DNA of 64,000 nucleotides from the NCBI GenBank assembly GCA_045633625.1, contig JAZQYP010000065.1:21076-85075 (forward strand). The letters run 5' to 3'. Below are positions 10,902 to 61,297 of the stretch, piece after piece. The stretch is from Eubacteriales bacterium. Lineage in GTDB: Bacteria > Bacillota > Clostridia > Oscillospirales > CAG-272. Within the stretch, counting starts at the first letter, position 1. Each line of letters begins with the position of its first letter. The position numbers and the translations under genes are program-made. Below the pieces are notes generated by a model. That model was given only the letters and a program-made list of their open reading frames with translations, had not been told where the DNA came from and made no database searches.

Positions 10902-11288
10902 CTATTTATCCGCTGTATGAGGTCTTTTTAGGAATCGTACGCATTTTTTCAGTGAGAAAAGACCCGCGACGGTAAGCATAGCACCAAATATCTTTCGCAG
11001 TATACTCTCGTCGATAACCCCCGAGAGATATGAGCCGATAAGCGCGCCCGCGACACCGCTTATTATCATAATTCCAAGTGCAAAGGTGAATATTTTTCTG
11101 CGGAGTAGGTGAACGGGCAAGGAAGCGCCCGCCGAGAAGAGAAAAAAGAGAAGATTTACTCCCTGTGCCTCAAGCTGAGGAGTGCCTTCAAAGAGTGTCA
11201 GATAAACCAAAAACAGACCGCCGCCCCCAACTCCGAGCCCCGAAAGAAGAGAGATGATAAATGCGGCCATCACCGAAAGCAGTACCAT
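10902..11288 (-). CDS. TauE/SafE (TSUP) family transporter, half-size C-terminal-type unit
   Basis: 128 aa, four hydrophobic segments, G-rich motif LSGLGVGGGGLF. Its start lies 1 nt after the stop of the upstream half. Confidence 0.75.
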   Translation of the reverse strand: MVLLSVMAAFIISLLSGLGVGGGGLFLVYLTLFEGTPQLEAQGVNLLFFLFSAGASLPVHLLRRKIFTFALGIMIISGVAGALIGSYLSGVIDESILRKIFGAMLTVAGLFSLKKCVRFLKRPHTADK

Positions 11289-11289
11289 A

Positions 11290-11685
11290 TTACTTCACCA
11301 TAAGAGAAATTCCCGAATAGACCATTATTCCCGAAAAAAGCGTGCGCAGAAGGGTGACGTTTATCTTGCCAAGCACAAAACCGCCTACAACGCCGCCTGC
11401 TATCGCGGGGATAAGGTAAACTCCAAAGCCGTCGAGTGATATATCTCCGCGCAAAAGGTAGCTGACAGTCGATATCACGCTCAGGGGAAGCATAACGCAT
11501 AGCGCGCTCGCAAAAACGTCTCTTGAGTCTGCCTCTGTGTCCTTGAGGAGCTTCGTCAGAACGAAAACGGCGACAATCCCACCGCCCGCCCCGAGAAGTC
11601 CGTTGGCAATGCCCGCAAGGAAGCCGCCGCCAATCAGAAGTAATAATTTTTTGCCCGAGTCCTTCATAAAAAATCTCTCTCCCAT
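11290..11685 (-). CDS. TauE/SafE (TSUP) family transporter, half-size N-terminal-type unit
   Basis: 131 aa, four hydrophobic segments, G-rich motif GLLGAGGGIV. An alternative start is the ATG at 11667. Confidence 0.75.
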   Translation of the reverse strand: MGERFFMKDSGKKLLLLIGGGFLAGIANGLLGAGGGIVAVFVLTKLLKDTEADSRDVFASALCVMLPLSVISTVSYLLRGDISLDGFGVYLIPAIAGGVVGGFVLGKINVTLLRTLFSGIMVYSGISLMVK

Positions 11686-15132: not shown

Positions 15133-18100
15133 ATGAAAAAACTAATTTCAATTGTATTAGTTGCTATGATGCTCCTCAGTGTGCTTCCTCTTGCAACTTT
15201 TGCAGACGAGTACTATGCCGGCGCGGCAGCAACAACTGCTCCTACGGCAGACGGTACGATTACAGCAGGAGAATATTTGTATTCAACGAATGTTCTTTCA
15301 AACGTTACGGAGAAGGGTGATCAGGGCAACGGTTGGATTGCATACACTCATAATCCCGGATCTGACTACTACTTCCGCGAGGGTCATTCTGCACAGATCT
15401 TCGTTGGATACGATGCAGATTACATTTACGTTGCTCTTAAGGTTGTGGATGCTCTTGATCATCCGCAGATGGTCATTGATATTAATGCAGACCCTACCTC
15501 CAAGGAGACCTTATATGTGCTTTACAGTGCTCGTAGCAATGCGGAGCATGCAAAGACAGCAAAGCGTGTTACAGACACACAGGTAAGCACAGATCTCGCT
15601 TGGGATGACGTTATTGCAGCATCCGGTGCATCTACAGCAGCAAACGGAGCTATGTATGACGGAGTTCTTGAACTTAAGATCAAGCGCTCTGCTATAAGCG
15701 ATACAGCTTTCGATACCATCGGACTTAGAGTTGGTGTTTGCACAGGTGGTAGCGGATTTTACGGTGAGGCTTATTGGGGAGATGATCCTACAACCTCCAC
15801 GATTCCCTACAAGGTAAGCGGCGGTTGGTGGCTTGAGCAGGCTGGTATGCATACTCTCAAGCTTTCCGAGGAGTCCGGTGCTCCCGCTCCCGCTCCTGTA
15901 TCTCCTACTGTTGACGGTGTTATCACAGCAGGTGAGTATGATGTAACTCGCACAGCTGATATCGCAGAGGATACTGCTGACTATGATTGGGTTGCTGATG
16001 ACACTATATGTGCTGTTGATGCCCCCTACTCGTATGGTGCTAGAAAGATAAGCTACCATTACTCTGTTTACGGCGATTATCTTTACGTCGCTGCAGTTCT
16101 TGAGACAACAGGCACATCCATGCTTGCTCGATTTGGCATTTCTGCTGATGAGTCGGCACTTGCCTATTCAGGAGCAAAAATGAACCAGATCAATCCCAAT
16201 GGTAGTACCTCCAAGGGTGCAGACACCACTTGGGAGTATGAAGAGGCAGCTGCAACAACTACAGCAGAGGGTGGTATTAATACATACGTATACGAGGGTA
16301 AGGTAGCACTTGCTGACCTTGGTACCGATTTGACAACCGTGTACGTAAAGGCTAGAGTTTACACTTCCGGTGATGGTTGCATTAACTATAACGACGTTAT
16401 CGTTGTTAACGAACCCGAATCTGATACAGAGTCCGATACTGAGACCGAGCCTGCTCCTACATATGATCCCTACGATCTTGGTGAGTACGGTCAGATAACT
16501 AACTACCTTGGCACAGCTTCCACTCCCACAGTTGACGGTAGCGTAGCTGACGGTGAGTACGGATGGTCTGCTTCTACTACCATTACGGATAACGTTGCAG
16601 CAGGCAGTGGCTTCCTTGTAAATGAATACGGTGCTGATAGTGTAACAGGCGTTGATCTCTACGCAGCATATGATGCTAATTATATTTATCTCACAGCTAT
16701 CATTTCCGATGCTGAGCCTGTAGGAAACGATTTCTGCTATTTTGACGTTGCGGTTGGCAATAGCATGAAGACTAACAACCTTGATATTTATATGCCTAAA
16801 TACGGCATTGGAGCACTTAAGGGCAATACCGAGGTATGGCTCAATGGTGCTCGCGCAGACGAGTACGTTGCAAGTGCAGTAGGCTCTGAGGCAAACGGAA
16901 AGCTTTGCTATGAGATAGCTCTCGATAGAGCTAAGCTTGAGACTCTTGCAGGTGAAAGCTTTGATAAGTTCTTCTTCAGCTTCCAGTACTATCTTTTTGC
17001 AAAGACAGAGCGTGGAATTTTCTACGGCTTTGAGGCAAGTGAGCTTGCCGGTGTTGTTGAAACAGCAACAAAGTACCCTGTATACTCTCACGTAATGGTT
17101 CTCGGTGAGGAGTCCGGCTCCGATACCGAGGCTCCCGCAGGTGAGCCCATTGACCTCACACAGTACGGTCAGCACGTGATCGATCTTACCGAGAAGAATA
17201 CTCCCACAGTTGACGGTACTATCGATAGCGACGAGTACAAGTACAGTGAAGGCGTTGCTACTTCAACAACAATTTGGGGTTCTGACGATATACAGGCTAC
17301 AACCTACTACTTCTCTTATGATGAAGAAAATCTCTACATTGCTGCTTACGTTAAAGACGGTGCTGAGCACAAAGAATGGCAAACAGGTCTCTTCATTACC
17401 GTTGGCGGAGATCCTACAGATATAGATGACGCATGGCGTATCTTCTTGACAAAGGCACAAGGCTCTGCAATCGAGCATTGGGAGATCGTTGACGGAGTTT
17501 GGGGTAGCAACCTCTTTAATAGTACTGACAAGGGTTATAAGTTCAGACAGAGCAACGTCGGTAGCGAGTACGTTTACGAGATAGCTCTCAATCGTGAGGA
17601 TTGGGGACTTACAGGTGATAGAGTATTCTTCACTGCCGCTGTTAACTCCGCTGCAGGATCTGACTTCTACGGCTTCGCTAATGCCGAGCTTGCAGGCGTT
17701 TATACACACCTCCAGAAGATCACAAACTTTGGCACAGATTACTACGTTTACCCGCACATGATCAAGTTCAGTGCAGTTGAGCCCGAGCCCGAGCCTCCTG
17801 TAGATATTCCTGATGCTGTTCCTGCTGATGGTCTTATCTCGGAAAACGAGTATGGTTGGACATCCGGATCCTACGACAGAAATACCGAGGTGCCCGGCGA
17901 GTTCTACGTCATTACACCTCATTCTGATACTGTAAATCATCACGCTCAGTGGTGGCTTGACTATGATGCACATTACCTCTACGTAGCATACAAGGAGAGA
18001 TCTGGATACAACACGACTGCACGTATCGACCTTAGTCCTAATGCAAATGCTGACGGCAAGGTTTCTATCGAATTCTCCTTTGATAGAGTTACTGCCAACG

Positions 18101-18924
18101 GCGCAAATACCGGATATGACATTCAGTCTGTAAAGGTTATTACCTATGCAGCTAACGGAACACCTACCGAGGTAGAGGTTTCTGACTATGTTGTTTCTTC
18201 CGTAGGTTCTTGGTGGGATGACAGTTCGAGAAACGTTAATACTGTTGAGTTCATCATCAGCCGTAGCGCTCTTGCAGCGTATGCAGGTATTGATAGCTTC
18301 AGCACTGTAGGTCTTAGAGGTTACTCCTTCTCGCAGCAGTCTGATCCTAACGACGGTTGGGCATCTAAGCCTGCAGCATCTATGTACGCAACCTATGGCG
18401 AGGGCTACCACACAATTGATCTCTTTGATCCTCACACATGTAAGACAGAGACTTGGGATGACATAACAGCTATTATACACCGTGGAAGTTGTGATATTTG
18501 CGGTGCGACGATAGAAGAAAATCATACCTTCGGAAGAGAGAGAACTCTCGTAGAGGCTACTTGCGTTGCGGGCGGCAGAATTGCAAAGACATGTACCATT
18601 TGTAGTTACGTATACAACAGAGCTACTGAGCCTAACCCCGATGCACACAACTACGTTGACGGCGTATGCACACTTTGTGAGGCGGCTGATCCCGAGGCAG
18701 AGACAACTCCTGTTGAGACAGAGCCTGCTGAGACAGAGCCTGTTGTAACAACTCCTGTTGAGACAAAGCCTGTTGAGACAACTCCCACAGAGACAACTCC
18801 TGTTGAGACAACTCCCGTTGTTGAGGAGGAGAAGGGTTGCGGATCTTCGATCGCAGCTCTCGCAGTTGCTCTCGTAGCTACTCTTGGAACTTGCGTAGTA
18901 TTCGCAGGCAAGAAGAGAGACTAA
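15133..18924 (+). CDS. GCG-tail surface protein paralog 1 of 7 (five modules + Cys/His-rich region + repeat linker + C-terminal TM tail)
   Basis: 1263 aa. Signal peptide MKKLISIVLVAMMLLSVLPLATFA. Five modules each open with ..P.(V/A)DG.I...EY (aa ~38, 258, 465, 691, 896). The Cys/His region spans aa 1101-1184. The linker repeats are PVETx. The tail is GCGSSIAALAVALVATLGTCVVFAGKKRD. Confidence 0.9.
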   Translation: MKKLISIVLVAMMLLSVLPLATFADEYYAGAAATTAPTADGTITAGEYLYSTNVLSNVTEKGDQGNGWIAYTHNPGSDYYFREGHSAQIFVGYDADYIYVALKVVDALDHPQMVIDINADPTSKETLYVLYSARSNAEHAKTAKRVTDTQVSTDLAWDDVIAASGASTAANGAMYDGVLELKIKRSAISDTAFDTIGLRVGVCTGGSGFYGEAYWGDDPTTSTIPYKVSGGWWLEQAGMHTLKLSEESGAPAPAPVSPTVDGVITAGEYDVTRTADIAEDTADYDWVADDTICAVDAPYSYGARKISYHYSVYGDYLYVAAVLETTGTSMLARFGISADESALAYSGAKMNQINPNGSTSKGADTTWEYEEAAATTTAEGGINTYVYEGKVALADLGTDLTTVYVKARVYTSGDGCINYNDVIVVNEPESDTESDTETEPAPTYDPYDLGEYGQITNYLGTASTPTVDGSVADGEYGWSASTTITDNVAAGSGFLVNEYGADSVTGVDLYAAYDANYIYLTAIISDAEPVGNDFCYFDVAVGNSMKTNNLDIYMPKYGIGALKGNTEVWLNGARADEYVASAVGSEANGKLCYEIALDRAKLETLAGESFDKFFFSFQYYLFAKTERGIFYGFEASELAGVVETATKYPVYSHVMVLGEESGSDTEAPAGEPIDLTQYGQHVIDLTEKNTPTVDGTIDSDEYKYSEGVATSTTIWGSDDIQATTYYFSYDEENLYIAAYVKDGAEHKEWQTGLFITVGGDPTDIDDAWRIFLTKAQGSAIEHWEIVDGVWGSNLFNSTDKGYKFRQSNVGSEYVYEIALNREDWGLTGDRVFFTAAVNSAAGSDFYGFANAELAGVYTHLQKITNFGTDYYVYPHMIKFSAVEPEPEPPVDIPDAVPADGLISENEYGWTSGSYDRNTEVPGEFYVITPHSDTVNHHAQWWLDYDAHYLYVAYKERSGYNTTARIDLSPNANADGKVSIEFSFDRVTANGANTGYDIQSVKVITYAANGTPTEVEVSDYVVSSVGSWWDDSSRNVNTVEFIISRSALAAYAGIDSFSTVGLRGYSFSQQSDPNDGWASKPAASMYATYGEGYHTIDLFDPHTCKTETWDDITAIIHRGSCDICGATIEENHTFGRERTLVEATCVAGGRIAKTCTICSYVYNRATEPNPDAHNYVDGVCTLCEAADPEAETTPVETEPAETEPVVTTPVETKPVETTPTETTPVETTPVVEEEKGCGSSIAALAVALVATLGTCVVFAGKKRD
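18706..18825 (+). repeat. 8 x 15-bp in-frame tandem repeat (T-P-V-E-T linker)
   Basis: ACTCCTGTTGAGACA and variants repeat head to tail inside array gene 1. Confidence 0.85.
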
Positions 18925-18952
18925 TTCGGAACTAACTGAATAAATACCTTAA

Positions 18953-18978
18953 GGGCGGCTCTTTGAGCCGCCCTTTTT
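18953..18978 (+). terminator. rho-independent terminator, array gene 1
   Basis: GGGCGGCTC-ttt-GAGCCGCCC plus T5. Confidence 0.85.
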
Positions 18979-19175
18979 GTGCGCTTTGTGTCGCGCGAGA
19001 GGGAATATGGCGAATGTATCACAAAATTTGCGTGGGATGGATGATATATGCTGATAAAGATCAATAGGGTGGCGTCCGGGCGCGTATATATATAATAAAT
19101 GAAGACTTTTGTATGCGGATGTGTGTCATTTTCAAAAAAGTGATATTTTTAATTGCTTTGACGGTCTTCTTATGC

Positions 19176-19204
19176 TTGACTTATCAATTTTGATGTGGTA
19201 AAAT
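19176..19204 (+). promoter_or_regulatory. promoter of array gene 2
   Basis: TTGACT (19176..19181), a 17-nt spacer, then TGgTAAAAT (19196..19204). Confidence 0.5.
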
Positions 19205-19254
19205 ATAATTGCAAGGATATTTTTATTCAAAATAAACAAAGAGAGGTAATTAAA

Positions 19255-20856
19255 ATGAAAAAAATCATTTCCATTATGCTTTGCGTATTTATGCTCCTTA
19301 GTGTAACGGCAGTTACCGCGTTTGCAGAGGACGAGGCAGTTGACAATTCGACTATCGACCTTACTACAAACGTCTCCGTTGCACCCGTTCTCGACGGTGT
19401 TATAAGCGATGGCGAGTATACCTACAACCACGGCGGAGAGCTCACAGGGGATATTCTCTGGGAATCCTTTGATGCTGATGGCATTCTTATTGGTGTTGAC
19501 ACGCCCTATACTGCAGGCTACCGCAGTGCAAAGTGGGCACTTGCTATTGACGACGACTATTTTTACGTCGCAATGGAGGTTAACAAGGTAGACGGTGCTG
19601 TTCCTCAGGCAGAATTTATGATCATGCGTAATAAGGTAGGACACCCCAACGACAGCTATGCCTTCAGAAATATAATCAAAGCTGACGGTACAACTGTAAA
19701 GGAAGCAAATGCAATATTCGGATTCGGTACAAACGATGCAACTGCTACAAATAACGGCGATACATACGTTTACGAGGGAAGAATCGCGCGCTCCGAGCTT
19801 GGACTTTCTGCTGATACTATTCACTTTATGAGCCGCGTATATTCTGACGACGGTGAGTGGGGAAGCTTCCTCCTCTTCGGATATGACGCTGAGTCTATGG
19901 CGATCAAGGTCACACCCTTGGCAGATGCGGCTGACGAGCCCGCTAAGGAATATTCAATAATGGATCTTGAGGCGTTTGGTCAGGCACACTGGGTCATCGC
20001 AGGCAAGGCCGAGGATGCTCCCATTGCCGACGGTATCGTTGAGGACGGCGAGTACACTCTTGTTGTAAAGGATATGGTGCCCGCTAACGATGATGCTGAT
20101 GACAGATTCTTCTGCATCGACCCTCAGGGACTTGACGTTGAGAACTTCAACCTCTACCTCAGCTATGATGACGATTACATCTACATAGGCGCCGAGGTTA
20201 TTGAGGACGAGATACTCGCTGGTGAGAACATCACCTTCCGTTTCGGTCTTGATCAGTACAACTTCGAGAAGAGAATAAACATAAAGTTTACTCACGGCGG
20301 TGCTCCTGAGAGTGACAATGCCGAGGCATTTGCTACAGAGCTTATCGACGGTGGAATCTCCTACGAGATCGTTATCAAGAGAACGGCTATGACCGATTAT
20401 CTTGGCTATGAGAGCAACGACGACATCAAGGAGTTCGCTCTTCAGATCGTAATGGGTGATGACCGTGATGAGGTTAACCATCCTGAGCTTTGGCCTGAGA
20501 TGTGGTTCGGCTGTGCTGTTCCCGGCGGCTTTGAGGGACTTGCAAGCAGCGCAGAGGCAGCAGAGTCTGAGGGTAAGCTTTGGGGCTTTATGGGACACCG
20601 TATGCCTCACGTAATGGTTCTCGGTGACGTTTCTGATGCTCCCGCAACAGAGCCCGCAGAGACCGAGCCTGCAGAGACTGAGCCCGCAGATACCGAGCCC
20701 GCAGAGACAACTCCCACAGAGAGTGCTCCTGCAGACACAACCGCACCCGACGCTCCCGCTGAAGAGAGCGGATGCGGCGCATCGGTTGCAGCAGTGGCTA
20801 TCGCTCTCGTTGCGGTACTTGGCACTTGCACAGTATTCGTAAATAAGAGAAGATAA
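19255..20856 (+). CDS. GCG-tail surface protein paralog 2 of 7 (module order B-A)
   Basis: The track start at 19195 is trimmed to the ATG at 19255 (GAGAGG RBS). Signal peptide MKKIISIMLCVFMLLSVTAVTAFA. A B-type module (VAPVLDGVISDGEYT) is followed by an A-type module (FGQAHWVIAGKAEDAPIADGIVEDGEYTL). The linker is AETEP. The tail is GCGASVAAVAIALVAVLGTCTVFVNKRR. Confidence 0.9.
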   Translation: MKKIISIMLCVFMLLSVTAVTAFAEDEAVDNSTIDLTTNVSVAPVLDGVISDGEYTYNHGGELTGDILWESFDADGILIGVDTPYTAGYRSAKWALAIDDDYFYVAMEVNKVDGAVPQAEFMIMRNKVGHPNDSYAFRNIIKADGTTVKEANAIFGFGTNDATATNNGDTYVYEGRIARSELGLSADTIHFMSRVYSDDGEWGSFLLFGYDAESMAIKVTPLADAADEPAKEYSIMDLEAFGQAHWVIAGKAEDAPIADGIVEDGEYTLVVKDMVPANDDADDRFFCIDPQGLDVENFNLYLSYDDDYIYIGAEVIEDEILAGENITFRFGLDQYNFEKRINIKFTHGGAPESDNAEAFATELIDGGISYEIVIKRTAMTDYLGYESNDDIKEFALQIVMGDDRDEVNHPELWPEMWFGCAVPGGFEGLASSAEAAESEGKLWGFMGHRMPHVMVLGDVSDAPATEPAETEPAETEPADTEPAETTPTESAPADTTAPDAPAEESGCGASVAAVAIALVAVLGTCTVFVNKRR

Positions 20857-20866
20857 AAATAATTCA

Positions 20867-20892
20867 GGGCGACTCAATGAGTCGCCCTTTTT
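20867..20892 (+). terminator. rho-independent terminator, array gene 2
   Basis: GGGCGACTC-aat-GAGTCGCCC plus T5. Confidence 0.85.
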
Positions 20893-20945
20893 GTGTGTTT
20901 TAGTCGAAAAATTTTCGGTATAATACCCAAAAACAAAACAAAAAG

Positions 20946-21002
20946 ATTGGTTAGTTTGAAGGGCTAAAAAGCCTTGATTTGTTTTCTTATTTATGTTAAA
21001 AT
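20946..21002 (+). promoter_or_regulatory. promoter of array gene 3 with conserved upstream box
   Basis: ATTGGTTAGTTTGA box (20946..20959) starts 28 nt before the -35 TTGATT (20974..20979). A 17-nt spacer precedes TGtTAAAAT (20994..21002). Confidence 0.55.
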
Positions 21003-21050
21003 AATATATCAGATAAAATTATTTATCAAAAATAGAAAAGAGGTAAAAAA

Positions 21051-22013
21051 ATGAAAAAAATTATTTCTATGATGCTTTGCGCTATTATGCTTCTGAGCGT
21101 AATGGCTCTTGCTACCTTTGCTGAGGATTACTCCATAATGGAGCTCCGTGATTTCGGTCAGCAGCACTGGGTTATCGAGGGTAAGGCCGAGGATGCTCCC
21201 ATTGCCGACGGTATTATCGAGGATGGCGAGTATACTCTTGTAGTTGAGGGTATGGATCCTTTCAATGACGACTCTGATGACAGATTCTTCTGTATCGACC
21301 CTCAGGCTCTTGACGTTGAGAACTTCAACCTCTACCTTTCCTACGATGACGAGTATTTGTATGTTGGTGCACGAGTAAAAGAGCCCGAAACGCTTAATGG
21401 TGAGGGAATCAGCTTCTACTTCAGCTGCAACCCCAAGGATATGCACGACGGAATATCTATCAGCTATCAGTTTGGCGGTGCTCCCAACACATCGGAGGCA
21501 GAAGCATTTGCTACCGAGCAGGATGGAGACGAAATAACCTATGAGATCGTTATCAGAAGAACGATGCTCGTCGACTATATGGGCTATGAGGACGTTGACG
21601 ATATCAAGGAGTTTGCACTTCTTATCGTTATGGGTGACGACCGCGATCCTGAGAATTTCCCCGATCTTTGGCCCGAGATGTGGTTCGGATGTGCTGTTTC
21701 CGGCGACTATGAGGGACTTGCAAGCAGTCAGGAGGCTGCGGCGGCTGAGGGTAAGATCTATGGAAGAGCAAAGACCCGTTTCCCCCACGTAATGATCCTT
21801 GGTGATGCTCCTGCAGAGACCGAGCTTGCAGAGACAACTCCCGCAGAGACAACTCCCGCGGAGACAACCCCCGCAGAGACCGAGCCCGCAGATACAACTA
21901 CCCCCGATGCTCCCGTAGCAGAGAACGGATGCGGCGCATCTATAGCGGCAGTTGCAGTAGCACTTGTTGCAGTACTTGGCACTTGCACGGTATTCGTAAA
22001 TAAGAGAAGATAA
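21051..22013 (+). CDS. GCG-tail surface protein paralog 3 of 7 (single A-type module)
   Basis: 320 aa, with signal peptide, FGQQHWVIEGKAEDAPIADGIIEDGEYTL, FPHVMILGD, an AETTP linker and the tail GCGASIAAVAVALVAVLGTCTVFVNKRR. Confidence 0.9.
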   Translation: MKKIISMMLCAIMLLSVMALATFAEDYSIMELRDFGQQHWVIEGKAEDAPIADGIIEDGEYTLVVEGMDPFNDDSDDRFFCIDPQALDVENFNLYLSYDDEYLYVGARVKEPETLNGEGISFYFSCNPKDMHDGISISYQFGGAPNTSEAEAFATEQDGDEITYEIVIRRTMLVDYMGYEDVDDIKEFALLIVMGDDRDPENFPDLWPEMWFGCAVSGDYEGLASSQEAAAAEGKIYGRAKTRFPHVMILGDAPAETELAETTPAETTPAETTPAETEPADTTTPDAPVAENGCGASIAAVAVALVAVLGTCTVFVNKRR

Positions 22014-22023
22014 AAATAATTCA

Positions 22024-22050
22024 GGGCGACTCATTGAGTCGCCCTTTTTA
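22024..22050 (+). terminator. rho-independent terminator, array gene 3
   Basis: GGGCGACTC-att-GAGTCGCCC plus T5. Confidence 0.85.
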
Positions 22051-22104
22051 TTTTTTTCAAAAAGCAAAAGTTTTGGGAAATGTACCCAAAAACAAAATCG
22101 AAAG

Positions 22105-22161
22105 ATTGGTTAGTTTGAGGTGTCAAAAAGTCTTGATTTGAGCTCCTTTTTGTGTTAAAAT
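22105..22161 (+). promoter_or_regulatory. promoter of array gene 4 with conserved upstream box
   Basis: ATTGGTTAGTTTGA (22105..22118) starts 28 nt before TTGATT (22133..22138). A 17-nt spacer precedes TGtTAAAAT (22153..22161). Confidence 0.55.
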
Positions 22162-22208
22162 AATGTATCAGATAAAATATTTATCAAAAAATAAGAGAGG
22201 TAATAAAA

Positions 22209-23189
22209 ATGAAAAAAATTATTGCAGTTGCGCTTTCTGCGGTAATGCTTTTGAGCGTAATGGCTCTCGGAGTATTTGCAGAGGGTTATTCGTTTTCTGA
22301 TCTTGAGGATTTTGGTCAGCTGTCTTGGGTAATCGAGGGAAAGACTGAGAATGCCCCCATTGCCGACGGTATCATTGAGGAGGGTGAATATACCCTTGAG
22401 GTAAAGGATATGGATCCTTACAATGACGATGCTGATGATAAATTCTTCTGTATTGATCCGCAGGCACTTGACATTGAGAACTTCAGCCTTTATTTCAGCT
22501 ATGATGATGATTATATTTATCTCGGTGCTGAGGTAACAGAGTCCGAGACGCTTGACGGTGAGGCTATTTGTTTCCGTATTTACAGTAACTCCTTCGACAC
22601 GTATGAGGGCATTGAGATAAGCTATGCATACGGCGGCGTACCCAATACATCCGAGGCAGAGGCATTCTGCACAGAAAAGGATGGAGACGTTGTTACATAC
22701 GAGATGGTCATCAGAAGAACGCTTCTTTCCGACTATATCGGTGCTGATGACGTTGATGACGTAAAGGAATTTTTCCTTCTCGTTTGTATGAGTGATGACC
22801 GCGACCAGGAGAATTTCCCTGAGCTTTGGCCTGAGGTGTGGTTTGCATGCAAGACCCCCAGCGGATTTGAGGGAATTGCAAGCGCAAGAGAAGCCGCAGA
22901 GGCAGAGGGTAAGCTTTGGGGACGTGGCCCCAGCCACAACCGTTTCCCCCACGTAATGATCCTTGGTGATGCTCTAGAGACCGAGCCTGCAGATACAACT
23001 CCCGCAGAGACAACTCCTGCAGATACAACACCTGCGCAGACAACTCCCACAGAGAGTGCTCCCGTAGATACAACTACTCCTGATGCTCCCGTAGCAGAGA
23101 GCGGATGCGGCGCATCTGTAGCGGCAGTTGCAGTAGCACTTGTTTCGGCACTTGGACTCTGTGTTACCGTTGTTTCGAAAAAGAGATAA
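22209..23189 (+). CDS. GCG-tail surface protein paralog 4 of 7 (single A-type module)
   Basis: 326 aa, with the same architecture as the others. The tail is GCGASVAAVAVALVSALGLCVTVVSKKR. Confidence 0.9.
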   Translation: MKKIIAVALSAVMLLSVMALGVFAEGYSFSDLEDFGQLSWVIEGKTENAPIADGIIEEGEYTLEVKDMDPYNDDADDKFFCIDPQALDIENFSLYFSYDDDYIYLGAEVTESETLDGEAICFRIYSNSFDTYEGIEISYAYGGVPNTSEAEAFCTEKDGDVVTYEMVIRRTLLSDYIGADDVDDVKEFFLLVCMSDDRDQENFPELWPEVWFACKTPSGFEGIASAREAAEAEGKLWGRGPSHNRFPHVMILGDALETEPADTTPAETTPADTTPAQTTPTESAPVDTTTPDAPVAESGCGASVAAVAVALVSALGLCVTVVSKKR

Positions 23190-23202
23190 TTAAAAACAAA
23201 AA

Positions 23203-23230
23203 GCAAGACAGCACGCTGTCTTGCTTTTTT
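23203..23230 (+). terminator. rho-independent terminator, array gene 4
   Basis: GCAAGACAG-cacg-CTGTCTTGC plus T6. This terminator sequence differs from those of the other cassettes. Confidence 0.85.
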
Positions 23231-23250
23231 GTGCTTATTAGACAAAAAAC

Positions 23251-23307
23251 ATTGTATAGTTTGACGAGAGAGATTTTCTTGAAATTGACGTAATCTCGTG
23301 ATATAAT
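23251..23307 (+). promoter_or_regulatory. promoter of array gene 5 with conserved upstream box
   Basis: ATTGTATAGTTTGA (23251..23264) starts 28 nt before TTGAAA (23279..23284). A 17-nt spacer precedes TGaTATAAT (23299..23307). Confidence 0.5.
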
Positions 23308-23351
23308 TATAGAGGCGATATTTTTATTAAAAAATAAGAGAGGTAATAAAA

Positions 23352-24350
23352 ATGAAAAAAATTATTTCTATTGTGCTTTGTGCAGTAATGCTTATGAGCA
23401 TGATGATGCTTGGAGTATATGCTAATACTTACAAGCTCAATGAATTTGAAGAATTTGGCCAGCAGAAGTGGGTTGTTGAGGGAAAGACTGAGAATGCCCC
23501 CCTTGCCGACGGTATCATTGAGGAGGGTGAGTACACCCTTGAGGTAAAGGATATGGATCCTTACAATGACGATGCAGATGACAGATTCTACTGTATTGAC
23601 CCCTTTGCGCTTGACGTTGAGAATTTCAGCCTTTATTTCAGCTATGATGACGATTACATTTATATCGGTGCCGAGGTAACAGAGTCCGAGACTCTTGACG
23701 GCGAGAAAATAAAGTTCTGGGTCATATACGATTACCACAATGCGCACAACAACGGAATTGCTGTAGAGTACGTATACGGTGGAACTCCTAACACCTCCGA
23801 GGCAGAGGCATTCTGCACCGAACAGGATGGCGACACGATCACCTATGAGCTTATCATCAGAAGAACCCTTCTTTCCGACTATATCGGCGCTGATGACGTT
23901 GATGATGTAAAGGAATTCTTCCTTCTTATGTGCCTGAGCGACGACCGCGACATTGAAAACGCTCCTGACGCATGGCCGGAGATGTGGATCGGTTGTAGAG
24001 TTCCCAAGGGATTTGAGGGAATAGCAACCAGTGGTGAGACTGCTGAGGAAGAGGGCAAGATCTACGGAACAGGTCCTGACCGTAACCGTTTGCCTCACAC
24101 CTTGGTTCTTGGTGATGCTCCCGAGACAGAGCCTGCAGATACAACTCCCGCAGATACCACCCCTGCAGACACAACTCCCGCAGACACAACCCCTGCAGAC
24201 ACAACTCCCACAGAGAGTGCTCCCGCAGATACAGCTACACCCGATGCTCCCGCAGAGGAGGGCGGATGCGGTGCATCTGTAGCGGCAGTGGCTGTTGCAC
24301 TTGTTGCAATGCTTGGCACTTGCACAGTATTTGTAAATAAGAGAAGATAA
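23352..24350 (+). CDS. GCG-tail surface protein paralog 5 of 7 (single A-type module)
   Basis: 332 aa, with the same architecture as the others. The linker is ADTTP x5. The tail is GCGASVAAVAVALVAMLGTCTVFVNKRR. Confidence 0.9.
   Translation: MKKIISIVLCAVMLMSMMMLGVYANTYKLNEFEEFGQQKWVVEGKTENAPLADGIIEEGEYTLEVKDMDPYNDDADDRFYCIDPFALDVENFSLYFSYDDDYIYIGAEVTESETLDGEKIKFWVIYDYHNAHNNGIAVEYVYGGTPNTSEAEAFCTEQDGDTITYELIIRRTLLSDYIGADDVDDVKEFFLLMCLSDDRDIENAPDAWPEMWIGCRVPKGFEGIATSGETAEEEGKIYGTGPDRNRLPHTLVLGDAPETEPADTTPADTTPADTTPADTTPADTTPTESAPADTATPDAPAEEGGCGASVAAVAVALVAMLGTCTVFVNKRR
24135..24209 (+). repeat. 5 x 15-bp in-frame tandem repeat (A-D-T-T-P linker)
   Basis: GCAGAyACmACyCCy repeats head to tail inside array gene 5. 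Confidence 0.85.
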
Positions 24351-24360
24351 AAATGAATTT

Positions 24361-24386
24361 GGGCGGCTCACCGAGCCGCCCTTTTT
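24361..24386 (+). terminator. rho-independent terminator, array gene 5
   Basis: GGGCGGCTC-acc-GAGCCGCCC plus T5. Confidence 0.85.
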
Positions 24387-24426
24387 GCTTTATATTAGGT
24401 AATATACACAAAAATAAAACAAAAAA

Positions 24427-24483
24427 ATTGTTTAGTTTGAAGGGCAATAAAGCCTTGATTTGTACACTTTATTGTGGTAAAAT
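24427..24483 (+). promoter_or_regulatory. promoter of array gene 6 with conserved upstream box
   Basis: ATTGTTTAGTTTGA (24427..24440) starts 28 nt before TTGATT (24455..24460). A 17-nt spacer precedes TGgTAAAAT (24475..24483). Confidence 0.55.
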
Positions 24484-24533
24484 ATGAATATGGATAATTT
24501 TATTATTCAAAATAACAAAAAGAGGTAACGAAA

Positions 24534-25526
24534 ATGAAAAAAATTATTTCTATGATGCTTTGCGCTCTTATGCTTCTGAGCGTAATGACTCTTTCCGCTT
24601 TTGCTGAGGACTATACTTTAGCAGAGCTTAAGGATTACGGTCAGCACGTAATTACACTTACTGAAAATACACTGCCTATCCTTGACGGTGTTATCGATGA
24701 TGGTGAGTATGCTTACTCTGAGAGCGTTTCAAAAGAGACAACCATTTACGGCACAGACAATATTACCGCTACAACCTACCACTTCTCGTATGATGAAGAG
24801 TTTCTTTACGTTGCCGGCGTTGTCAACGATGCAAGTGAGCACGTAAATTACGTAAATGCTCTTTGGCTCTACATTAGCGGAGATGTTACCGATCTCGACA
24901 ACGCATGGAGAATCTACATGACAAAAATGAACCGTGATAACGTAGAGCACTGGAAGATCGTTGATAGCATTTCCTCTTCGAATATGTGGAATCCTATCGA
25001 TTCGAAGAACCCCAGCGGCTACACTCACGGTCTTGCAGATAAGTACTATGAGTTCTGCCAGAACTTTGTAGACGGCGTTTATACTTACGAGATCGCTCTT
25101 GACCGTGAGGATTGGGGCTTGACAGGCGATAAGATGTTCATCGCTCTTGGTGCTGCATCGTCTGACGGAACGGACGTTTACGGATTTAAGAATGAAGAGC
25201 TTTTCAACATTTCGGCAGGTCTTAATTCTAACTCTAATGACTTTAATTACGGTGTATATATGCACCTTCTTGAGTTTGCAGCAGACGGTGCTGTTGAGAC
25301 AGAGCCCGCAGAGACTGAGCCTGCAGAGACTGAGCCCGCAGAGACAGAGCCCGCTGAGACTGAGCCTGCAGAGACTGAGCCTGCAGAGACAACTCCTGTA
25401 GAGACTGAGCCCGCAGAGACTGAGCCCGTAGCAGAGGGTGGATGTGGCGCATCTGTAGCAGCAGTAGCAGTTGCACTTGTTGCAATGCTCGGCACTTGCG
25501 TAGCGTTCGTAAATAAGAGAAGATAA
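24534..25526 (+). CDS. GCG-tail surface protein paralog 6 of 7 (single module related to module 4 of paralog 1)
   Basis: 330 aa. YGQHVITLTENTLPILDGVIDDGEYAYSE...TTYHFSYDEEFLYVA parallels paralog 1 aa ~677-738. The linker is ETEPA x9. The tail is GCGASVAAVAVALVAMLGTCVAFVNKRR. Confidence 0.9.
   Translation: MKKIISMMLCALMLLSVMTLSAFAEDYTLAELKDYGQHVITLTENTLPILDGVIDDGEYAYSESVSKETTIYGTDNITATTYHFSYDEEFLYVAGVVNDASEHVNYVNALWLYISGDVTDLDNAWRIYMTKMNRDNVEHWKIVDSISSSNMWNPIDSKNPSGYTHGLADKYYEFCQNFVDGVYTYEIALDREDWGLTGDKMFIALGAASSDGTDVYGFKNEELFNISAGLNSNSNDFNYGVYMHLLEFAADGAVETEPAETEPAETEPAETEPAETEPAETEPAETTPVETEPAETEPVAEGGCGASVAAVAVALVAMLGTCVAFVNKRR
25296..25430 (+). repeat. 9 x 15-bp in-frame tandem repeat (E-T-E-P-A linker)
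   Basis: GAGACwGAGCCyGCw repeats nine times head to tail inside array gene 6. Confidence 0.9.
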
Positions 25527-25538
25527 AAAAACGATTTA

Positions 25539-25565
25539 GGGCGGCTTATCGAGCCGCCCTTTTTT
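25539..25565 (+). terminator. rho-independent terminator, array gene 6
   Basis: GGGCGGCT-tatcg-AGCCGCCC plus T-run. Confidence 0.85.
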
Positions 25566-25701
25566 GTATAAATTTGTACACAAAATGTATAAAGAAAAAT
25601 TTTCGGGCTTAAATCTATTGCTTTGTTTGGTAAAATATGATAAAATACGAATATAACAAGCCCAAAGGTTAGTTAATTTTTTTGAAAAAGAGGTAAGCAA
25701 A

Positions 25702-27345
25702 ATGAAAAAGATAATTTCAATCGTGCTTTGTGCTATGATGCTCCTCGGTGTTGCGTCGGTGTCGGCATTTGCCGCAGACGTTCCCGATGATGCGACTGCT
25801 CTCGGTGATTTCGGACAGAAACACTTTTATGCAGGTCCTGAGGTAGAAAGTGCTCCTACGATCGACGGTGTAGTAGAGGACGGAGAGTATACTCTTGAGA
25901 TCCTCAATATGAGACCCGAGGACGATGCTATCGATGACAGATTCTTCGTTATCGATATTTGCGACGTAGAGTTTGTTAATATCTACGCAGCACAGGATTT
26001 CGATTTTCTATATTTTGCAGTTGAGGTAAAGGACCCTTCATTCGTTCACCACGATGCAGTTTCCTTTTCGCTCGGCGTTCATGAGAATATCGACTCTTCG
26101 CTTATGTTTGCGACGAGATTCAACGATATTCCCGATGACACGAATATGACTATCAATCTTGAAGAGCTTTCAAAGACTGCTGAGGATCCGGGTAACCCCT
26201 ACGCAGCCGGTGATATAGTTGACCGTACAGGTGAGACCTATGACTTTATTGGAGCAAAGGGACTCTCCTATAACGAGGAAACTCAGGTTGCTACTTATGA
26301 GATAGCTGTCAGCCGTATGATGCTTGAAACCGAGGCAGACGATCTTCTTGAGAAGATCTTCCTCCGTGTTGTTATCAGCATGAGAAATGAGGCAGGCGAG
26401 CTTGGAACCATCTGGTTTGGCTTCAGAGGGGACGGTGCAGACCTTCGCGCCAAGCACCACTCGTACATCAGCCGTTTCCCCCACGTTCTCTATCTTATAG
26501 ACGGAGAGGGTGACGAGGACTACGTTGTCAAGGAAGTAGAGAAGGACAACACAATGTGGCCTCAGATCGACTTCACGGAAAAGGTTTCCACCGCTCCCGT
26601 TGTCGACGGCGTTATAGGCGAGAGTGAGTACACTCATACATATTCATCAGACCTTACAGAGAGTGCTGACGGTTGGGCATTTATTGATGAGAACAATATG
26701 ATGCGCGCTGCCGATGCCGCTTATGCAAAGGGACTTCGCAGTGTAAGCTGGAGCCTTGCAAGAGATAATGATTTCCTCTACATTGCCACTTCGATTAAGA
26801 CAACCGGTGCGGCTCCCATAGCGCAGTTCCAGATCACTAAGAGACAGGATACGGCTTCTTATCCTATGGCAAACATAACTGCCGACGGTTCGGCTGATGA
26901 GGGAAATGCTGTTTGGGATTTTGCAGAGGCAAAGGCTTCTAACGACGGCACAACTTACGTATATGAGGCTAAGATAGCACTTGACGATATTGGCGACAAT
27001 CTTGATAAGGTGTTTGTTCTTGGCAGAGCATATCTTGACGAGGGCTTCGTGTTGTTTGGACTCAATGAGGATCCTCTTGGCGGTGTTTGTGGATTCAGAG
27101 CAGGATTCAACGGACTTCAGACAACTCCTCCCGAGACAGAGCCTGCAGAGACTGAGCCCGCAGAGACCGAGCCCACAGAGACCGAGCCTGCAGAGACAAC
27201 TCCCACAGAGAGTGCTCCCGCAGATACAACTACACCCGATGCTCCCGTAGCAGAGGGCGGATGTGGCGCATCTGTAGCAGCAGTAGCAGCTGCACTTGTT
27301 GCAATGCTCGGCACTTGCGTAGCATTCGTAAATAAGAGAAGATAA
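25702..27345 (+). CDS. GCG-tail surface protein paralog 7 of 7 (module order A-B)
   Basis: 547 aa. A divergent A-type module (FGQKHFYAGPEVESAPTIDGVVEDGEYTL...DDRFFVID) is followed by a B-type module (STAPVVDGVIGESEYT...GTTYVYEAKIALDDIG). The tail is GCGASVAAVAAALVAMLGTCVAFVNKRR. Confidence 0.9.
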   Translation: MKKIISIVLCAMMLLGVASVSAFAADVPDDATALGDFGQKHFYAGPEVESAPTIDGVVEDGEYTLEILNMRPEDDAIDDRFFVIDICDVEFVNIYAAQDFDFLYFAVEVKDPSFVHHDAVSFSLGVHENIDSSLMFATRFNDIPDDTNMTINLEELSKTAEDPGNPYAAGDIVDRTGETYDFIGAKGLSYNEETQVATYEIAVSRMMLETEADDLLEKIFLRVVISMRNEAGELGTIWFGFRGDGADLRAKHHSYISRFPHVLYLIDGEGDEDYVVKEVEKDNTMWPQIDFTEKVSTAPVVDGVIGESEYTHTYSSDLTESADGWAFIDENNMMRAADAAYAKGLRSVSWSLARDNDFLYIATSIKTTGAAPIAQFQITKRQDTASYPMANITADGSADEGNAVWDFAEAKASNDGTTYVYEAKIALDDIGDNLDKVFVLGRAYLDEGFVLFGLNEDPLGGVCGFRAGFNGLQTTPPETEPAETEPAETEPTETEPAETTPTESAPADTTTPDAPVAEGGCGASVAAVAAALVAMLGTCVAFVNKRR

Positions 27346-27356
27346 AAAATTATTCA

Positions 27357-27384
27357 GGGCGGCTCTATGGGCCGCCCTTTGTTA
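27357..27384 (+). terminator. rho-independent terminator, array gene 7
   Basis: GGGCGGC-tctatgg-GCCGCCC followed by TTTGTT; the U-tract is weaker than in the other cassettes. Confidence 0.7.
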
Positions 27385-27431: not shown

Positions 27432-27437
27432 CAAGTA

Positions 27438-27686
27438 AAGCGTTGATGGGAAGCGGTACGGAGAAGGCTTTTTCAGAGAGCCGTCGGTTGCTGTGAGACG
27501 GTAAGGTGCTCCGCTACTAAATCATCCCAGAGTCGCCGTCGAAACCGATGGGAAGTAGAGCGGCGCGTCATCCCGCGTTAAGGGAGAGCGTATGATAGTG
27601 CGCAGTGAGTGGTCAGTTTGACAAACGGAGTGGTACCGCGGAGAATTTTTCGTCTTCGTCTCTATTATGAGACGGAGATTTTTTGT
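27438..27686 (+). promoter_or_regulatory. T-box riboswitch leader (probable Ile specifier AUC)
   Basis: AGAGA box at 27475..27479. T-box core GAGTGGTACCGCG at 27628..27640. Terminator CGTCTC-tattat-GAGACG plus T-run at 27657..27685. The specifier loop ends ...AAATCA before the helix TCCC, putting ATC at 27521..27523. Confidence 0.8.
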
Positions 27687-27719
27687 TTATATAAGGCTTT
27701 ATTTGAAAGGAAATTAGTT

Positions 27720-29434: not shown

Positions 29435-29706
29435 AATCAATTAAAAGCGATAAAGGGAATCAGTAGCTTGACGTGCTTTTTCAGAAACCTGACGGGTGAT
29501 GCGAGTCAGGATTGTGCCCGAGTGAAACTCCTCCCCGAGCTTCTGCCCGAAGACAGCTGTTGCGTAGGCGCAGACGGAATGTCACCGTTATCTTTGACAG
29601 CTTCACTGATGGGTGAAGGATGAGGTGGCTGATTTTTCAGCAAAAAGAGTGGTACCGCAGAGTTCTATATGACCTTTGTCTCTTAATTGAGATAAAGGTC
29701 TTTTTT
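29435..29706 (+). promoter_or_regulatory. T-box riboswitch leader (probable Leu specifier CUC)
   Basis: T-box core GAGTGGTACCGCA at 29647..29659. Terminator GACCTTTGTCTC-ttaatt-GAGATAAAGGTC plus T6 at 29671..29706. The candidate specifier is GAAACTCC, with CTC at 29528..29530; the alternative reading is ACU. Confidence 0.8.
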
Positions 29707-54285: not shown

Positions 54286-54291
54286 GCTTTT

Positions 54292-54564
54292 ATAAACCTA
54301 TGAATAAGAGTAGTAGCCATCGAAATTTTGTTTTCAGAGAGTCGCGGGTGCTGTGAGCGCGATAGCAAGACCTTGGTGAATGGACTTATGAGGGCGGAGC
54401 GAGAAGCGATAGCTTGTTAGTAGCCGACGGGAAGCCTATCCGTTACAAATGGCGGCGCATAGAGTGCGCAGAGTGGGCGATATTCGCCAAGCCGGGTGGT
54501 ACCGCAGGATAATTTTTAGATATTTTCCTGTCCCTGCATTAGCAGGGACAGGATTTTGTTTTTT
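54292..54564 (+). promoter_or_regulatory. T-box riboswitch leader, Trp specifier (UGG)
   Basis: AGAGA box. Specifier loop GAA-TGG-A, with TGG at 54381..54383 just before the lower helix CTTAT. T-box core GGGTGGTACCGCA at 54494..54506. Terminator CCTGTCCCTGC-atta-GCAGGGACAGG plus T-run at 54527..54564. Confidence 0.85.
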
Positions 54565-55947: not shown

Positions 55948-56502
55948 ATGGAAGATTATAAGATCGTTGACCTGTATTGGCAACGCTCGGAGGACGCCAT
56001 AAAAGAGACCGACGCAAAGTACGGCAGAATGCTCAAGGGCATTTCGCTTTCCTTTGTTGAGGTCATCGAGGATGCAGAGGAGTGCCTTAACGACACCTAC
56101 CTTGCGGCGTGGCAGAGCATGCCAAGTGAGAGACCCGTGTATCTCGGCGCGTTTCTCTCAAGGATCATTCGCTCACTCTCGATAGACCGCTATCGCGCGC
56201 GACACTCAAAGAAGCGCGGCGGCGTGGCGGCACTGTGCGAGGAGCTGACCGATTGTATCCCTGACACTATGAGTGTTGAAACTGAATACGATAACTCCCG
56301 TCTTGCTGACACACTAAACCGCTTCGTTGAGTCACTTGACGAAGAGAGGCGGTATATCTTCATAAGAAGATATTATTACTCGGATGCTATCGACACGATA
56401 GCAGACAAACTCGGCTCGGGTGTCGGAAGAATAAAAACGATTCTTCACCGACTTCGTAAGGAGCTAAAGAAAATTCTTGAGGAAGGGGGGATCGCGATAT
56501 GA
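55948..56502 (+). CDS. sigma-70 family RNA polymerase sigma factor (ECF-like, regions 2 and 4 only)
   Basis: 184 aa. Region 2 is ECLNDTYLAAWQ...RIIRSLSIDRYR and the region 4 HTH is IDTIADKLGSGVGRIKTILHRLRKELK. Confidence 0.85.
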   Translation: MEDYKIVDLYWQRSEDAIKETDAKYGRMLKGISLSFVEVIEDAEECLNDTYLAAWQSMPSERPVYLGAFLSRIIRSLSIDRYRARHSKKRGGVAALCEELTDCIPDTMSVETEYDNSRLADTLNRFVESLDEERRYIFIRRYYYSDAIDTIADKLGSGVGRIKTILHRLRKELKKILEEGGIAI

Positions 56503-57170: not shown

Positions 57171-57178
57171 GAAAGGAA

Positions 57179-58828: not shown

Positions 58829-58845
58829 TCTCTTAAGGGGGATTT

Positions 58846-60108: not shown

Positions 60109-60146
60109 AGTACAAATTAAAAAATGTTGGGTAGATTTATTGATAA

Positions 60147-61034: not shown

Positions 61035-61252
61035 AGACTATAGTTGTTGTATTGTTCTTCAAAGACTTCAAAAGATTTGCATATAACTTGTAATCTATAT
61101 CAAAGGTTTTACTATATCCTGCCTGTTTATCCTATCAAAACAAAAGATGATCAATTATCAGAAATTTTTGATCTGCCTTTTGTTAATTATCCAAATAAAT
61201 TTACAGATACTTTTGAGGCAGAATAATATTAGCAAACACTGTTGTGTATAAA

Positions 61253-61284
61253 GAGCAGCTTCTCTTATAAAAGAGAAGCTGCTC
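61253..61284. terminator. bidirectional terminator (pepF / lipoprotein gene convergent)
   Basis: GAGCAGCTTCTCTT-ataa-AAGAGAAGCTGCTC, a 14-bp stem with T/A-rich flanks on both sides. Confidence 0.75.
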
Positions 61285-61297
61285 CTATATTTTATGC

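Follow-up and report, generated by a model that had tools for sequence, protein, structure and literature searches.

Seven tandem genes in a 64-kb window of contig JAZQYP010000065.1 (the window being the whole stretch of DNA that was analyzed) encode proteins that end in the same short tail, referred to here as GCG-CTERM. This tail is a conserved, modular, strictly C-terminal domain of 28 to 30 residues that is unmodelled in the libraries used, and its carriers are Sec-exported proteins of uncultured, gut-type anaerobes of the Firmicutes type. Because it also ends about 160 other protein families, partly unrelated, and matches no described sorting signal, the tail is probably a new surface-anchoring or sorting tag. 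C-terminal sorting tags set which proteins a bacterium displays on its surface, and to our knowledge each new tag so far has led to a new enzyme (sortase, exosortase, archaeosortase, rhombosortase, and myxosortase). An initial annotation of this DNA had already read the seven tails as a candidate sorting signal. That reading is supported in part, by their layout and wide distribution, while the sorting function itself is something that we infer.

Seven tails with one layout

The array occupies positions 15133 to 27345 of the window, and all seven tail-bearing genes lie on the + strand. In each tail, a G-C-G-[AS]-S signature is followed by a hydrophobic helix containing L-G-[TL]-C and then by a basic end. 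The three-part logic recognized initially, with a Cys signature, a transmembrane (TM) helix, and a basic cluster behind a low-complexity spacer, is seen in all seven; the terminus described as KRR is indeed basic, but it is not always KRR, its actual form being [NSG]-K-[KR]-R(-D). Exactly 18 residues past the signature Cys is another conserved Cys, in L-G-[TL]-C. The tails are where they were first placed, in frame with long open reading frames (ORFs):

Tail 1, 18835..18921, + strand: GCGSSIAALAVALVATLGTCVVFAGKKRD
Tail 2, 20770..20853, + strand: GCGASVAAVAIALVAVLGTCTVFVNKRR
Tail 3, 21927..22010, + strand: GCGASIAAVAVALVAVLGTCTVFVNKRR
Tail 4, 23103..23186, + strand: GCGASVAAVAVALVSALGLCVTVVSKKR; the most divergent among the seven (LGLC)
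Tail 5, 24264..24347, + strand: GCGASVAAVAVALVAMLGTCTVFVNKRR
Tail 6, 25440..25523, + strand: GCGASVAAVAVALVAMLGTCVAFVNKRR
Tail 7, 27259..27342, + strand: GCGASVAAVAAALVAMLGTCVAFVNKRR

A six-frame search of the 64 kb for GCG, a hydrophobic stretch, and a stop within 45 codons or fewer returned exactly these seven tails. A degenerate 60-nucleotide (nt) tail pattern matched six of them and had no match in 100 shuffles.

The tails in the window are not simple DNA copies of each other. Codon differences across the 21 tail pairs were 171 synonymous versus 121 nonsynonymous, and nucleotide identity between pairs was 58 to 89%, genes 6 and 7 excepted. Tails 6 and 7 share 98% DNA identity (2 of 84 nt differ), whereas identity drops to about 50% in their flanks (60 nt on the upstream side, 80 nt on the downstream side), and their proteins differ in length, at 330 versus 547 amino acids (aa). 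This looks like a short local gene-conversion patch confined to the tail.

Every array protein begins with a Sec-type signal peptide (MKKIISI.LCA.MLLSV....FAE) and carries one to five CBM9-like beta-sandwich modules, which open with P-x-x-D-G-x-I-x-x-G-E-Y. Before the tail comes a spacer of 30 to 43 residues made of T/E/P/A/D repeats. The genes are listed with their entries (P numbers) among the proteins matched in the searches described below:

Array gene 1, 15133..18924, + strand: 1263 aa; signal peptide, about five CBM9-like modules, Cys-rich module, 42-aa T/E/P/V spacer, tail; P0060
Array gene 2, 19255..20856, + strand: 533 aa from the ATG at 19255; two CBM9-like modules, 38-aa spacer, tail; P0008
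Array gene 3, 21051..22013, + strand: 320 aa; single CBM9-like module, spacer, tail; P0006
Array gene 4, 22209..23189, + strand: 326 aa; single CBM9-like module, spacer, tail; P0002
Array gene 5, 23352..24350, + strand: 332 aa; CBM9-like beta-sandwich, spacer, tail; P0001
Array gene 6, 24534..25526, + strand: 330 aa; single divergent CBM9-like module, (ETEPA)n spacer, tail; P0027
Array gene 7, 25702..27345, + strand: 547 aa; two CBM9-like modules, spacer, tail; P0020

In the gene 1 product, P-x-x-D-G-x-I-x-x-x-E-Y motifs occur at residues 37, 258, 465, and 691, with a variant near 905. The mechanical ORF list places the start of array gene 2 at the GTG at 19195, but the gene most likely starts at the ATG at 19255 (MKKIISIML...).

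The tail extends far beyond the window

The initial annotation had allowed that the tail might occur only in this one array, and this proved false. Tail profile A3 (33 positions), searched against 1.84 billion representative proteins, matched 164 clusters (50% identity clustering) at E <= 1e-3, on several unrelated passengers, and 33 clusters at E <= 1e-10. All but one of the 150 matches listed lie at the extreme C terminus, the exception being a false positive (P0040). Among these listed matches, the tail proteins are 42 to 2441 residues long and the distance from Cys to the end is 25 to 35 residues. A search of 5.8 billion clustered proteins gave only 39 relatives of the gene 5 protein, of which one is truncated and the other 38 have the tail.

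In total, 161 distinct tails align with zero indels. After a Thr/Glu/Ala/Pro-rich spacer, their consensus is G-C-G-[GSA]-[ST]-[VI]-x-x-x-[GA]-[VIL]-A-L-V-A-[AT]-L-G-T-C-[TA]-x-F-V-x-K-K-[KR]-[ED]-[D]-end. With the boundary Cys numbered 0, the frequencies over the 161 tails, which are inflated since the sequences were selected by profile, are as follows:

Positions -1 to 4: G-1 97%, C0 100%, G1 85%, S/T3 86%, V/I4 98%
Positions 10 to 13: A10 93%, L11 89%, V12 83%, A13 88%
Positions 15 to 18: L15 94%, G16 98%, T17 79%, C18 93%
Positions 21 and 24: F21 86%, K24 95%; the end is then K-[KR]-(E/D)-(D)

Pro is outside the top five residues at every tabulated position of these tails, and the 40 residues that precede them are 19.5% T, 18.7% E, 16% A, and 13% P.

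An independent alignment of 31 full-length homologues gave identities of about 67% in the tail, 44% in the signal peptide, and about 20% in the passenger. The simpler explanation first offered, a plain type I anchor kept similar by recent duplication, is rejected, since the tail is about 67% identical across organisms on passengers that are about 20% identical. Tail subtypes also track orthologues, which argues that the conservation reflects long-term purifying selection and not homogenization within one genome. For example, the gene 1-type tail ending ...CVVFAGKKRD / VVFAGKKRD recurs in P0053, P0056, and P0072.

Orthologous tail arrays were present in other metagenomes, one with seven genes (L001, from JGI 3300031555, which is also the source of L020) and one with five (L015, from Logan SRR27608062). 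L001 resembles the window in that ilvA and ridA follow the array a few genes later. Because gene copy number and the number of modules per gene vary among organisms, the locus is an expanding and contracting paralogue array.

Other searches returned less. The DNA tail pattern matched eight short metagenome contigs, comprising five true tails and three chance matches. A word-index protein search with the tail-plus-spacer profile A2 gave zero scoring matches, its candidates probably having been drawn from the low-complexity spacer; a genome-contig search with the gene 5 protein gave zero relatives, and tblastn of plasmids gave zero matches.

Passengers are exported and partly unrelated

The AF2 model of the gene 5 protein (31 aligned sequences; predicted local distance difference test score, 83) has a beta-sandwich at residues ~35 to 255, a disordered spacer at 256 to 305, and a single continuous helix at 307 to 331 that begins directly after the Cys. 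In Foldseek comparisons with the PDB, the top matches to this model were CBM9 structures (7nwn, 7nwo, and 1i82_A; E of 2e-6 to 3e-5; TM-score of 0.58 to 0.65 on the target), followed by DOMON-like sandwiches. The gene 5 passenger is thus predicted to have the CBM9 beta-sandwich fold, and it shares with CBM9 the N-terminal P-x-x-D-G-x-I-x-x-G-E-Y strand motif. It differs in having only about 10% sequence identity to CBM9 and no attached glycoside hydrolase. A Pfam scan of the seven array proteins gave zero matches, the CBM9 model included. The CBM9-like passengers of the window are probably glycan binding.

By BLAST single linkage, 101 of the 120 tail proteins with at least 100 passenger residues fall into one CBM9-like superfamily, and the other 19 form ten groups. 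Pfam domains on unrelated passengers include Metallophos with Pur_ac_phosph_N, DUF4886, the lamin-tail domain (LTD), Exo_endo_phos, Flg_new, and the BspA-type leucine-rich repeat (LRR) family LRR_5. One such protein, P0052, is encoded outside the window but on its 206,693-bp contig. Exo_endo_phos (residues 61 to 312) is its N-terminal enzyme domain; next come Cys-rich modules and a single CBM9-like module, and the protein closes with a spacer and the tail GCGGSVAAIGVALVAILGTCTVFVSKKK. With the seven in the window, this makes at least eight tail proteins in the genome. Elsewhere, locus L018 has two adjacent tail-bearing genes for purple-acid-phosphatase-like proteins.

At least 12 clusters are passenger-less mini-proteins of 62 to 126 residues, in which a lipoprotein signal peptide with a lipobox Cys is joined by a T/E/A/P linker to the tail (P0042, P0044, P0061, P0068, P0070, P0074, P0080, P0106, P0109, P0111, P0123, P0126, and P0168, all on contigs of <1 kb). 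If real, the mini-proteins would be tethered at both ends; for the presumed sorting machinery, they may represent substrates of minimal size.

An N-terminal signal peptide was found in 120 of the 132 tail proteins of at least 250 aa. The tail shows several features of the sorting-signal class, namely, a position at the extreme C terminus, a tripartite layout, and several copies per genome on unrelated passengers with signal peptides.

No described sorting-signal model matches the tail

In searches of NCBIfam release 20 and Pfam, reporting matches at E <= 10, none of the 7 full array proteins, the 7 tails, and the tails of 25 diverse relatives reached a curated cutoff. Models for MYXO-CTERM (TIGR03901), TIGR04564, CGP-CTERM, GlyGly-CTERM, and PEP-CTERM were unlisted even at this permissive E value. 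Firmicu-CTERM (TIGR04145) likewise gave no match at E <= 10, its presence in the NCBIfam copy being unconfirmed, though TIGR03068, also a sorting-signal model of the TIGR series, was reported. The possibility raised by the initial annotation, that the tail would match the Firmicu-, MYXO-, Synerg-, GlyGly-, or PEP-CTERM models, was not borne out.

The best subthreshold matches were to strep_LAETG (E of 0.0067), NPQTN (0.027), Gram_pos_anchor (0.075), and Rumino_NPXTG (0.44), along with the tails of the MYXO-CTERM-anchored families MXAN_2561 (0.022) and MXAN_5453 (0.025), whose cutoffs are 150 to 500 bits. Such matches cover the helix and basic end only. The tail has no LPXTG-like pentapeptide, as was noted at the outset, and the corresponding models stayed far under their cutoffs. 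A variant sortase motif was rejected, since the tail has neither T-G nor a spacer. A lipobox reading of L-G-[TSA]-C was also rejected, as the motif sits at the cytoplasmic end of the helix (N-out, C-in), which is the wrong side for Lgt.

No candidate enzyme was found near the tail genes examined

Sortase, CPBP, rhomboid, and exosortase genes are absent among the genes of the 64-kb window. The claim that the window has no sortase, exosortase, rhombosortase, or CPBP gene therefore held in both the gene scan and a hydropathy scan, in which the only polytopic membrane proteins were FtsK, an ECF-S component, and TauE. The same classes were absent near homologues in six neighborhoods (L001, L012, L014, L015, L017, and L018) and from the contexts of P0021, P0026, P0038, P0039, P0003, P0068, P0149, and P0191. 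Housekeeping sorting enzymes are encoded away from their targets (10.1101/2023.06.07.544157), so absence near tail genes is expected and is not positive evidence.

The sole uncharacterized polytopic protein found adjoining tail genes is in L018 (3915-5309). It is 464 aa long, is predicted to have about 10 TM segments, lacks a Pfam match, ends in (EEAPVA)n, and is encoded directly upstream of the two tail-bearing phosphatase genes. It is probably unrelated, being absent from the other neighborhoods.

A proposed Cys-based sorting tail and its alternatives

On balance, we lean toward explaining GCG-CTERM, by analogy with known systems, as a Cys-modified C-terminal sorting tail that would be recognized by an enzyme. 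The evidence for this is a terminal position without indels, conservation exceeding that of a generic TM segment, occurrence on unrelated passengers, several copies per genome, and export. In the Cys-CTERM class described by Haft (10.1101/2023.06.07.544157), the signature holds an invariant Cys and leads straight into the TM helix, without a spacer, and the helix has conserved residues, with a Thr-rich region upstream and a basic end. GCG-CTERM likewise has an invariant Cys abutting the helix, conservation within the helix, a Thr-rich upstream region, and a basic end. The enzymes for MYXO-, JDVT-, Synerg-, and CGP-CTERM are CPBP/Rce1-type intramembrane proteases (10.1101/2023.06.07.544157), and cleavage of MYXO-CTERM by MrtX requires the Cys (PMC11980579; Guo, Haft & Wall 2025).

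A mechanism modelled on these systems would begin with Sec export, in which the hydrophobic segment would act as a stop-transfer helix, leaving the passenger and spacer outside, G-C-G at the outer membrane boundary, and the K/R cluster in the cytoplasm. The helix and boundary Cys would then be recognized by a dedicated membrane-embedded enzyme encoded elsewhere in the genome. The Cys would be modified, probably by lipidation, by analogy with MYXO-, JDVT-, Synerg-, and CGP-CTERM, and the helix would then be cut just after the Cys by a CPBP/Rce1-type intramembrane protease, with a rhomboid-type enzyme as the second candidate. Within the sorting explanation, an enzyme of the CPBP type is likelier than one of the rhomboid type. 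As a result, a stalk of 30 to 43 residues, which would span the wall, would tether the CBM9-like protein to the surface.

The complete form of this proposal is more tentative. It would make GCG-CTERM an unrecognized sorting pathway of Gram-positive Clostridia of the gut and rumen type, in which the boundary Cys is lipidated or otherwise modified and a dedicated CPBP/Rce1-like enzyme (a "clostridial myxosortase") or rhomboid enzyme removes the helix, yielding surface proteins that are lipid anchored at the C terminus or linked to the wall. The second Cys, in L-G-T-C, could then take part in recognition or in an acyl or thioester intermediate.

Several observations weigh against a sorting function. 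Conservation peaks in the inner-leaflet half of the helix (A-L-V-A-x-L-G-T-C-x-x-F), and a second Cys lies there, unlike in any of the four described Cys-CTERM signals; these two features fit a permanent helix-helix partnership equally well. A candidate enzyme gene was not found in the window or in the six neighborhoods. With 101 of 120 passengers in one BLAST-linked superfamily, the case for modularity comes from a minority, and the position frequencies that describe the tail are inflated by profile selection. The monoderm Firmicute host is also one that we infer, from three T-box leaders in the window and SpoIVB on a relative's contig.

The alternative that survives best is a retained, never-cleaved type I membrane anchor, which we consider a possible though less probable explanation. 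Here the conserved helix, with its small-residue A/G pattern, L-G-T-C, and F, would hold the proteins to one another or to a fixed partner in the membrane, and the Cys would be in disulfides, S-acylated, or packed in an interface. Such a role would suit a helix whose inner half is the most conserved part, all around its circumference, and a second Cys that lies 5 to 6 residues from the cytoplasmic end, where a model of cleavage only has no need for it. The AF2 model, in which residues 307 to 331 form a single continuous helix, and the absence of an enzyme gene from all neighborhoods examined are also consistent with an anchor that stays in place. However, the sole invariant residue is the Cys at the outer boundary, within a G-C-G that abuts the helix, which is the hallmark of processed Cys-CTERM signals. 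Passenger-less mini-proteins made of a lipoprotein signal, a linker, and the tail are hard to fit to a simple anchor, and ordinary TM anchors are rarely ~67% identical where ectodomain identity is 20%, although a specific partner could explain this.

It is improbable that the tail is a divergent member of a described signal, such as Firmicu-CTERM/XrtG, MYXO-CTERM, Synerg-CTERM, GlyGly-CTERM/rhombosortase, or an LPXTG-type signal. Many tails do open with G-G-C-G, and weak subthreshold similarities exist, driven by the helix and basic end. Against this, all curated cutoffs were missed by every protein and tail scanned; Pro, DP, C-G-P, and LPXTG-like motifs are all missing from the tail, and its signature is not separated from the helix by a spacer; and no cassette of exosortase G and glycosyltransferase adjoins tail genes. 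The remaining idea, that tail similarity is a functionless by-product of recent tandem duplication or gene conversion in the array, draws on the tandem paralogy of the genes and on the near-identity of tails 6 and 7 between diverged flanks, and it is refuted, with negligible probability left to it, by the 164 clusters from many samples, by the orthologous arrays (L001 and L015) and unrelated passengers, and by the 58 to 89% identity and synonymous excess of the other tail pairs.

Taken together, these analyses show that GCG-CTERM is real and wider than first seen; it forms a new family within a known kind of system, for which the proposed mechanism is plausible. It shows the logic of Cys-containing tags in a Firmicutes-type lineage, with a strictly spaced second Cys inside the membrane and no current hidden Markov model. 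With a model of the 161 distinct tails, a few hundred surface proteins now called "hypothetical" in uncultured anaerobes of the gut or rumen could be annotated, CBM9-like binders, phosphatases, nucleases, and LRR adhesins among them, and the model would provide a clean query profile with which to seek the partner enzyme by phylogenetic profiling. Should the tail prove to be an anchor that is retained, it would nonetheless be an interaction motif of unusual conservation within the membrane.

Transcription units and genomic context

Each array gene looks like a separate transcription unit because its own terminator-like hairpin follows it. Hairpins were found for all seven genes and upstream promoter-like sites for five of the seven:

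Intrinsic-terminator-like hairpin 3' of array gene 1, 18952..18974, + strand
Equivalent hairpins after array genes 2 to 7: 20866-20888, 22023-22045, 23198-23229, 24361-24381, 25538-25560, 27356-27378
Promoter-like TTGAYW-N17-TAAAAT sites: 19176, 20974, 22133, 24455
Promoter-like TTGAAA-N17-TATAAT site: 23279

Outside the array, the gene content of the window is that of a housekeeping region. Upstream of the array, the window encodes PNPase, a split TauE pair, and FtsK. Downstream are ilvA, ridA, and ilvBNC, then the ECF-S component, then ilvD, leuACDB, and ilvE. Further along are a BspA-LRR lipoprotein, an AraC-regulated sugar-acid cluster, an ECF sigma/VWA/serpin group, and peptidase M3. Neighbors of tail genes also include MscL, GDPD, and similar genes.

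Three T-box leaders scored at or above the Rfam gathering score:

T-box leader, 27434-27660: upstream of ilvA
T-box leader, 29441-29686: upstream of the ilvB operon
T-box leader, 54291-54538: upstream of a trpB-like PALP gene

The start of ilvA in the ORF list (GTG at 27609) falls within the first of these leaders; the real start is probably an ATG near 27717.

The BspA-type LRR lipoprotein (41028-42830, - strand) has a lipobox (LIAC), a (TE)n run, and about seven repeats of a 45-residue Cys-containing module (GH.F.NYVSNNDA.C.EDGTKTAECDR..CDETDT) without a Pfam match. A similar Cys-rich module occurs before the spacer of array gene 1 (18400-18700, + strand) and in P0052.

The window has other features of note. 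For two adjacent half-size ORFs (10902-11288 and 11290-11685, - strand; 128 and 131 aa), the match is in both cases to the C-terminal half of the TauE/SafE model; they are either a natural half-transporter pair or a duplicated or split gene. Positions 55948 to 60108 encode, in a row, an ECF sigma factor, a putative anti-sigma protein with one TM segment, a VWA/YfbK_C protein, and a full-length serpin (420 aa; Pfam E of 1e-88). Serpins are uncommon in bacteria; some gut Clostridia are known to have them. The region of lowest GC content in the window (0.376 over 60001-62000) encloses a lipoprotein-like ORF of 295 aa (60147-61034), which is internally duplicated and matches no family.

Comparison with known sorting systems

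LPXTG-type signals (PF00746; NPXTG, LAETG, and NPQTN) resemble GCG-CTERM in their wall-spanning low-complexity stalk, hydrophobic segment, and K/R-rich end, often KKKED. They differ from it in their pentapeptide and in the spacer between signature and helix; GCG-CTERM lacks both, and its signature is Cys based. Firmicu-CTERM is also a C-terminal sorting domain reported in Firmicutes, where one target adjoins exosortase G (XrtG) and two glycosyltransferases (PMC12854382). In contrast, GCG-CTERM occurs in arrays of five to seven targets amid housekeeping genes, with no exosortase nearby.

Closer likenesses are found among the Cys-containing tags. Synerg-CTERM (TIGR04564, MrtS), JDVT-CTERM (MrtJ), and CGP-CTERM (TIGR04288, MrtA) share with GCG-CTERM an invariant Cys that opens the TM segment, a Ser/Gly-rich signature, conserved residues within the helix, and an upstream Thr-rich, probably glycosylated region (Thr content of 26% for CGP-CTERM versus 19.5% for GCG-CTERM). 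All three occur in other taxa, none gave a model match to the tail, and each differs in detail. Synerg-CTERM has an invariant Pro in a Leu-rich helix, which is absent from GCG-CTERM. JDVT-CTERM has only one Cys, its Leu-rich helix is preceded by a nearly invariant D-P, and its one target adjoins the enzyme; GCG-CTERM has two Cys, lacks D-P, has a helix rich in Ala and Val, and occurs in target arrays that include no enzyme. CGP-CTERM has C-G-P, spans about 20 residues, and belongs to Thermococcales; GCG-CTERM has C-G-[GSA], spans 28 to 30 residues, and has a bacterial context.

MYXO-CTERM (TIGR03901), the substrate of MrtX, is also a tripartite domain of about 30 residues at the extreme C terminus, with a Gly-Cys-Gly-type signature, an invariant Cys abutting a helix without charge or Pro, and a basic cytoplasmic end. 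It too has many targets per genome, varied passengers, and an enzyme gene that is not adjacent. Its second Cys, however, is often nearby (GCGC, +2), while that of GCG-CTERM is at +18 in the helix (L-G-T-C), and its end is Arg rich, while that of GCG-CTERM is Lys rich and often finishes in E-D. MYXO-CTERM is limited to Myxococcota (10.1101/2023.06.07.544157). The host of GCG-CTERM is of Firmicutes type (T-box leaders, and SpoIVB in a relative), so no outer membrane or type II secretion system step would be expected. If GCG-CTERM does mark a sorting pathway, the Cys-CTERM/CPBP paradigm would extend from diderm bacteria and archaea to monoderms.

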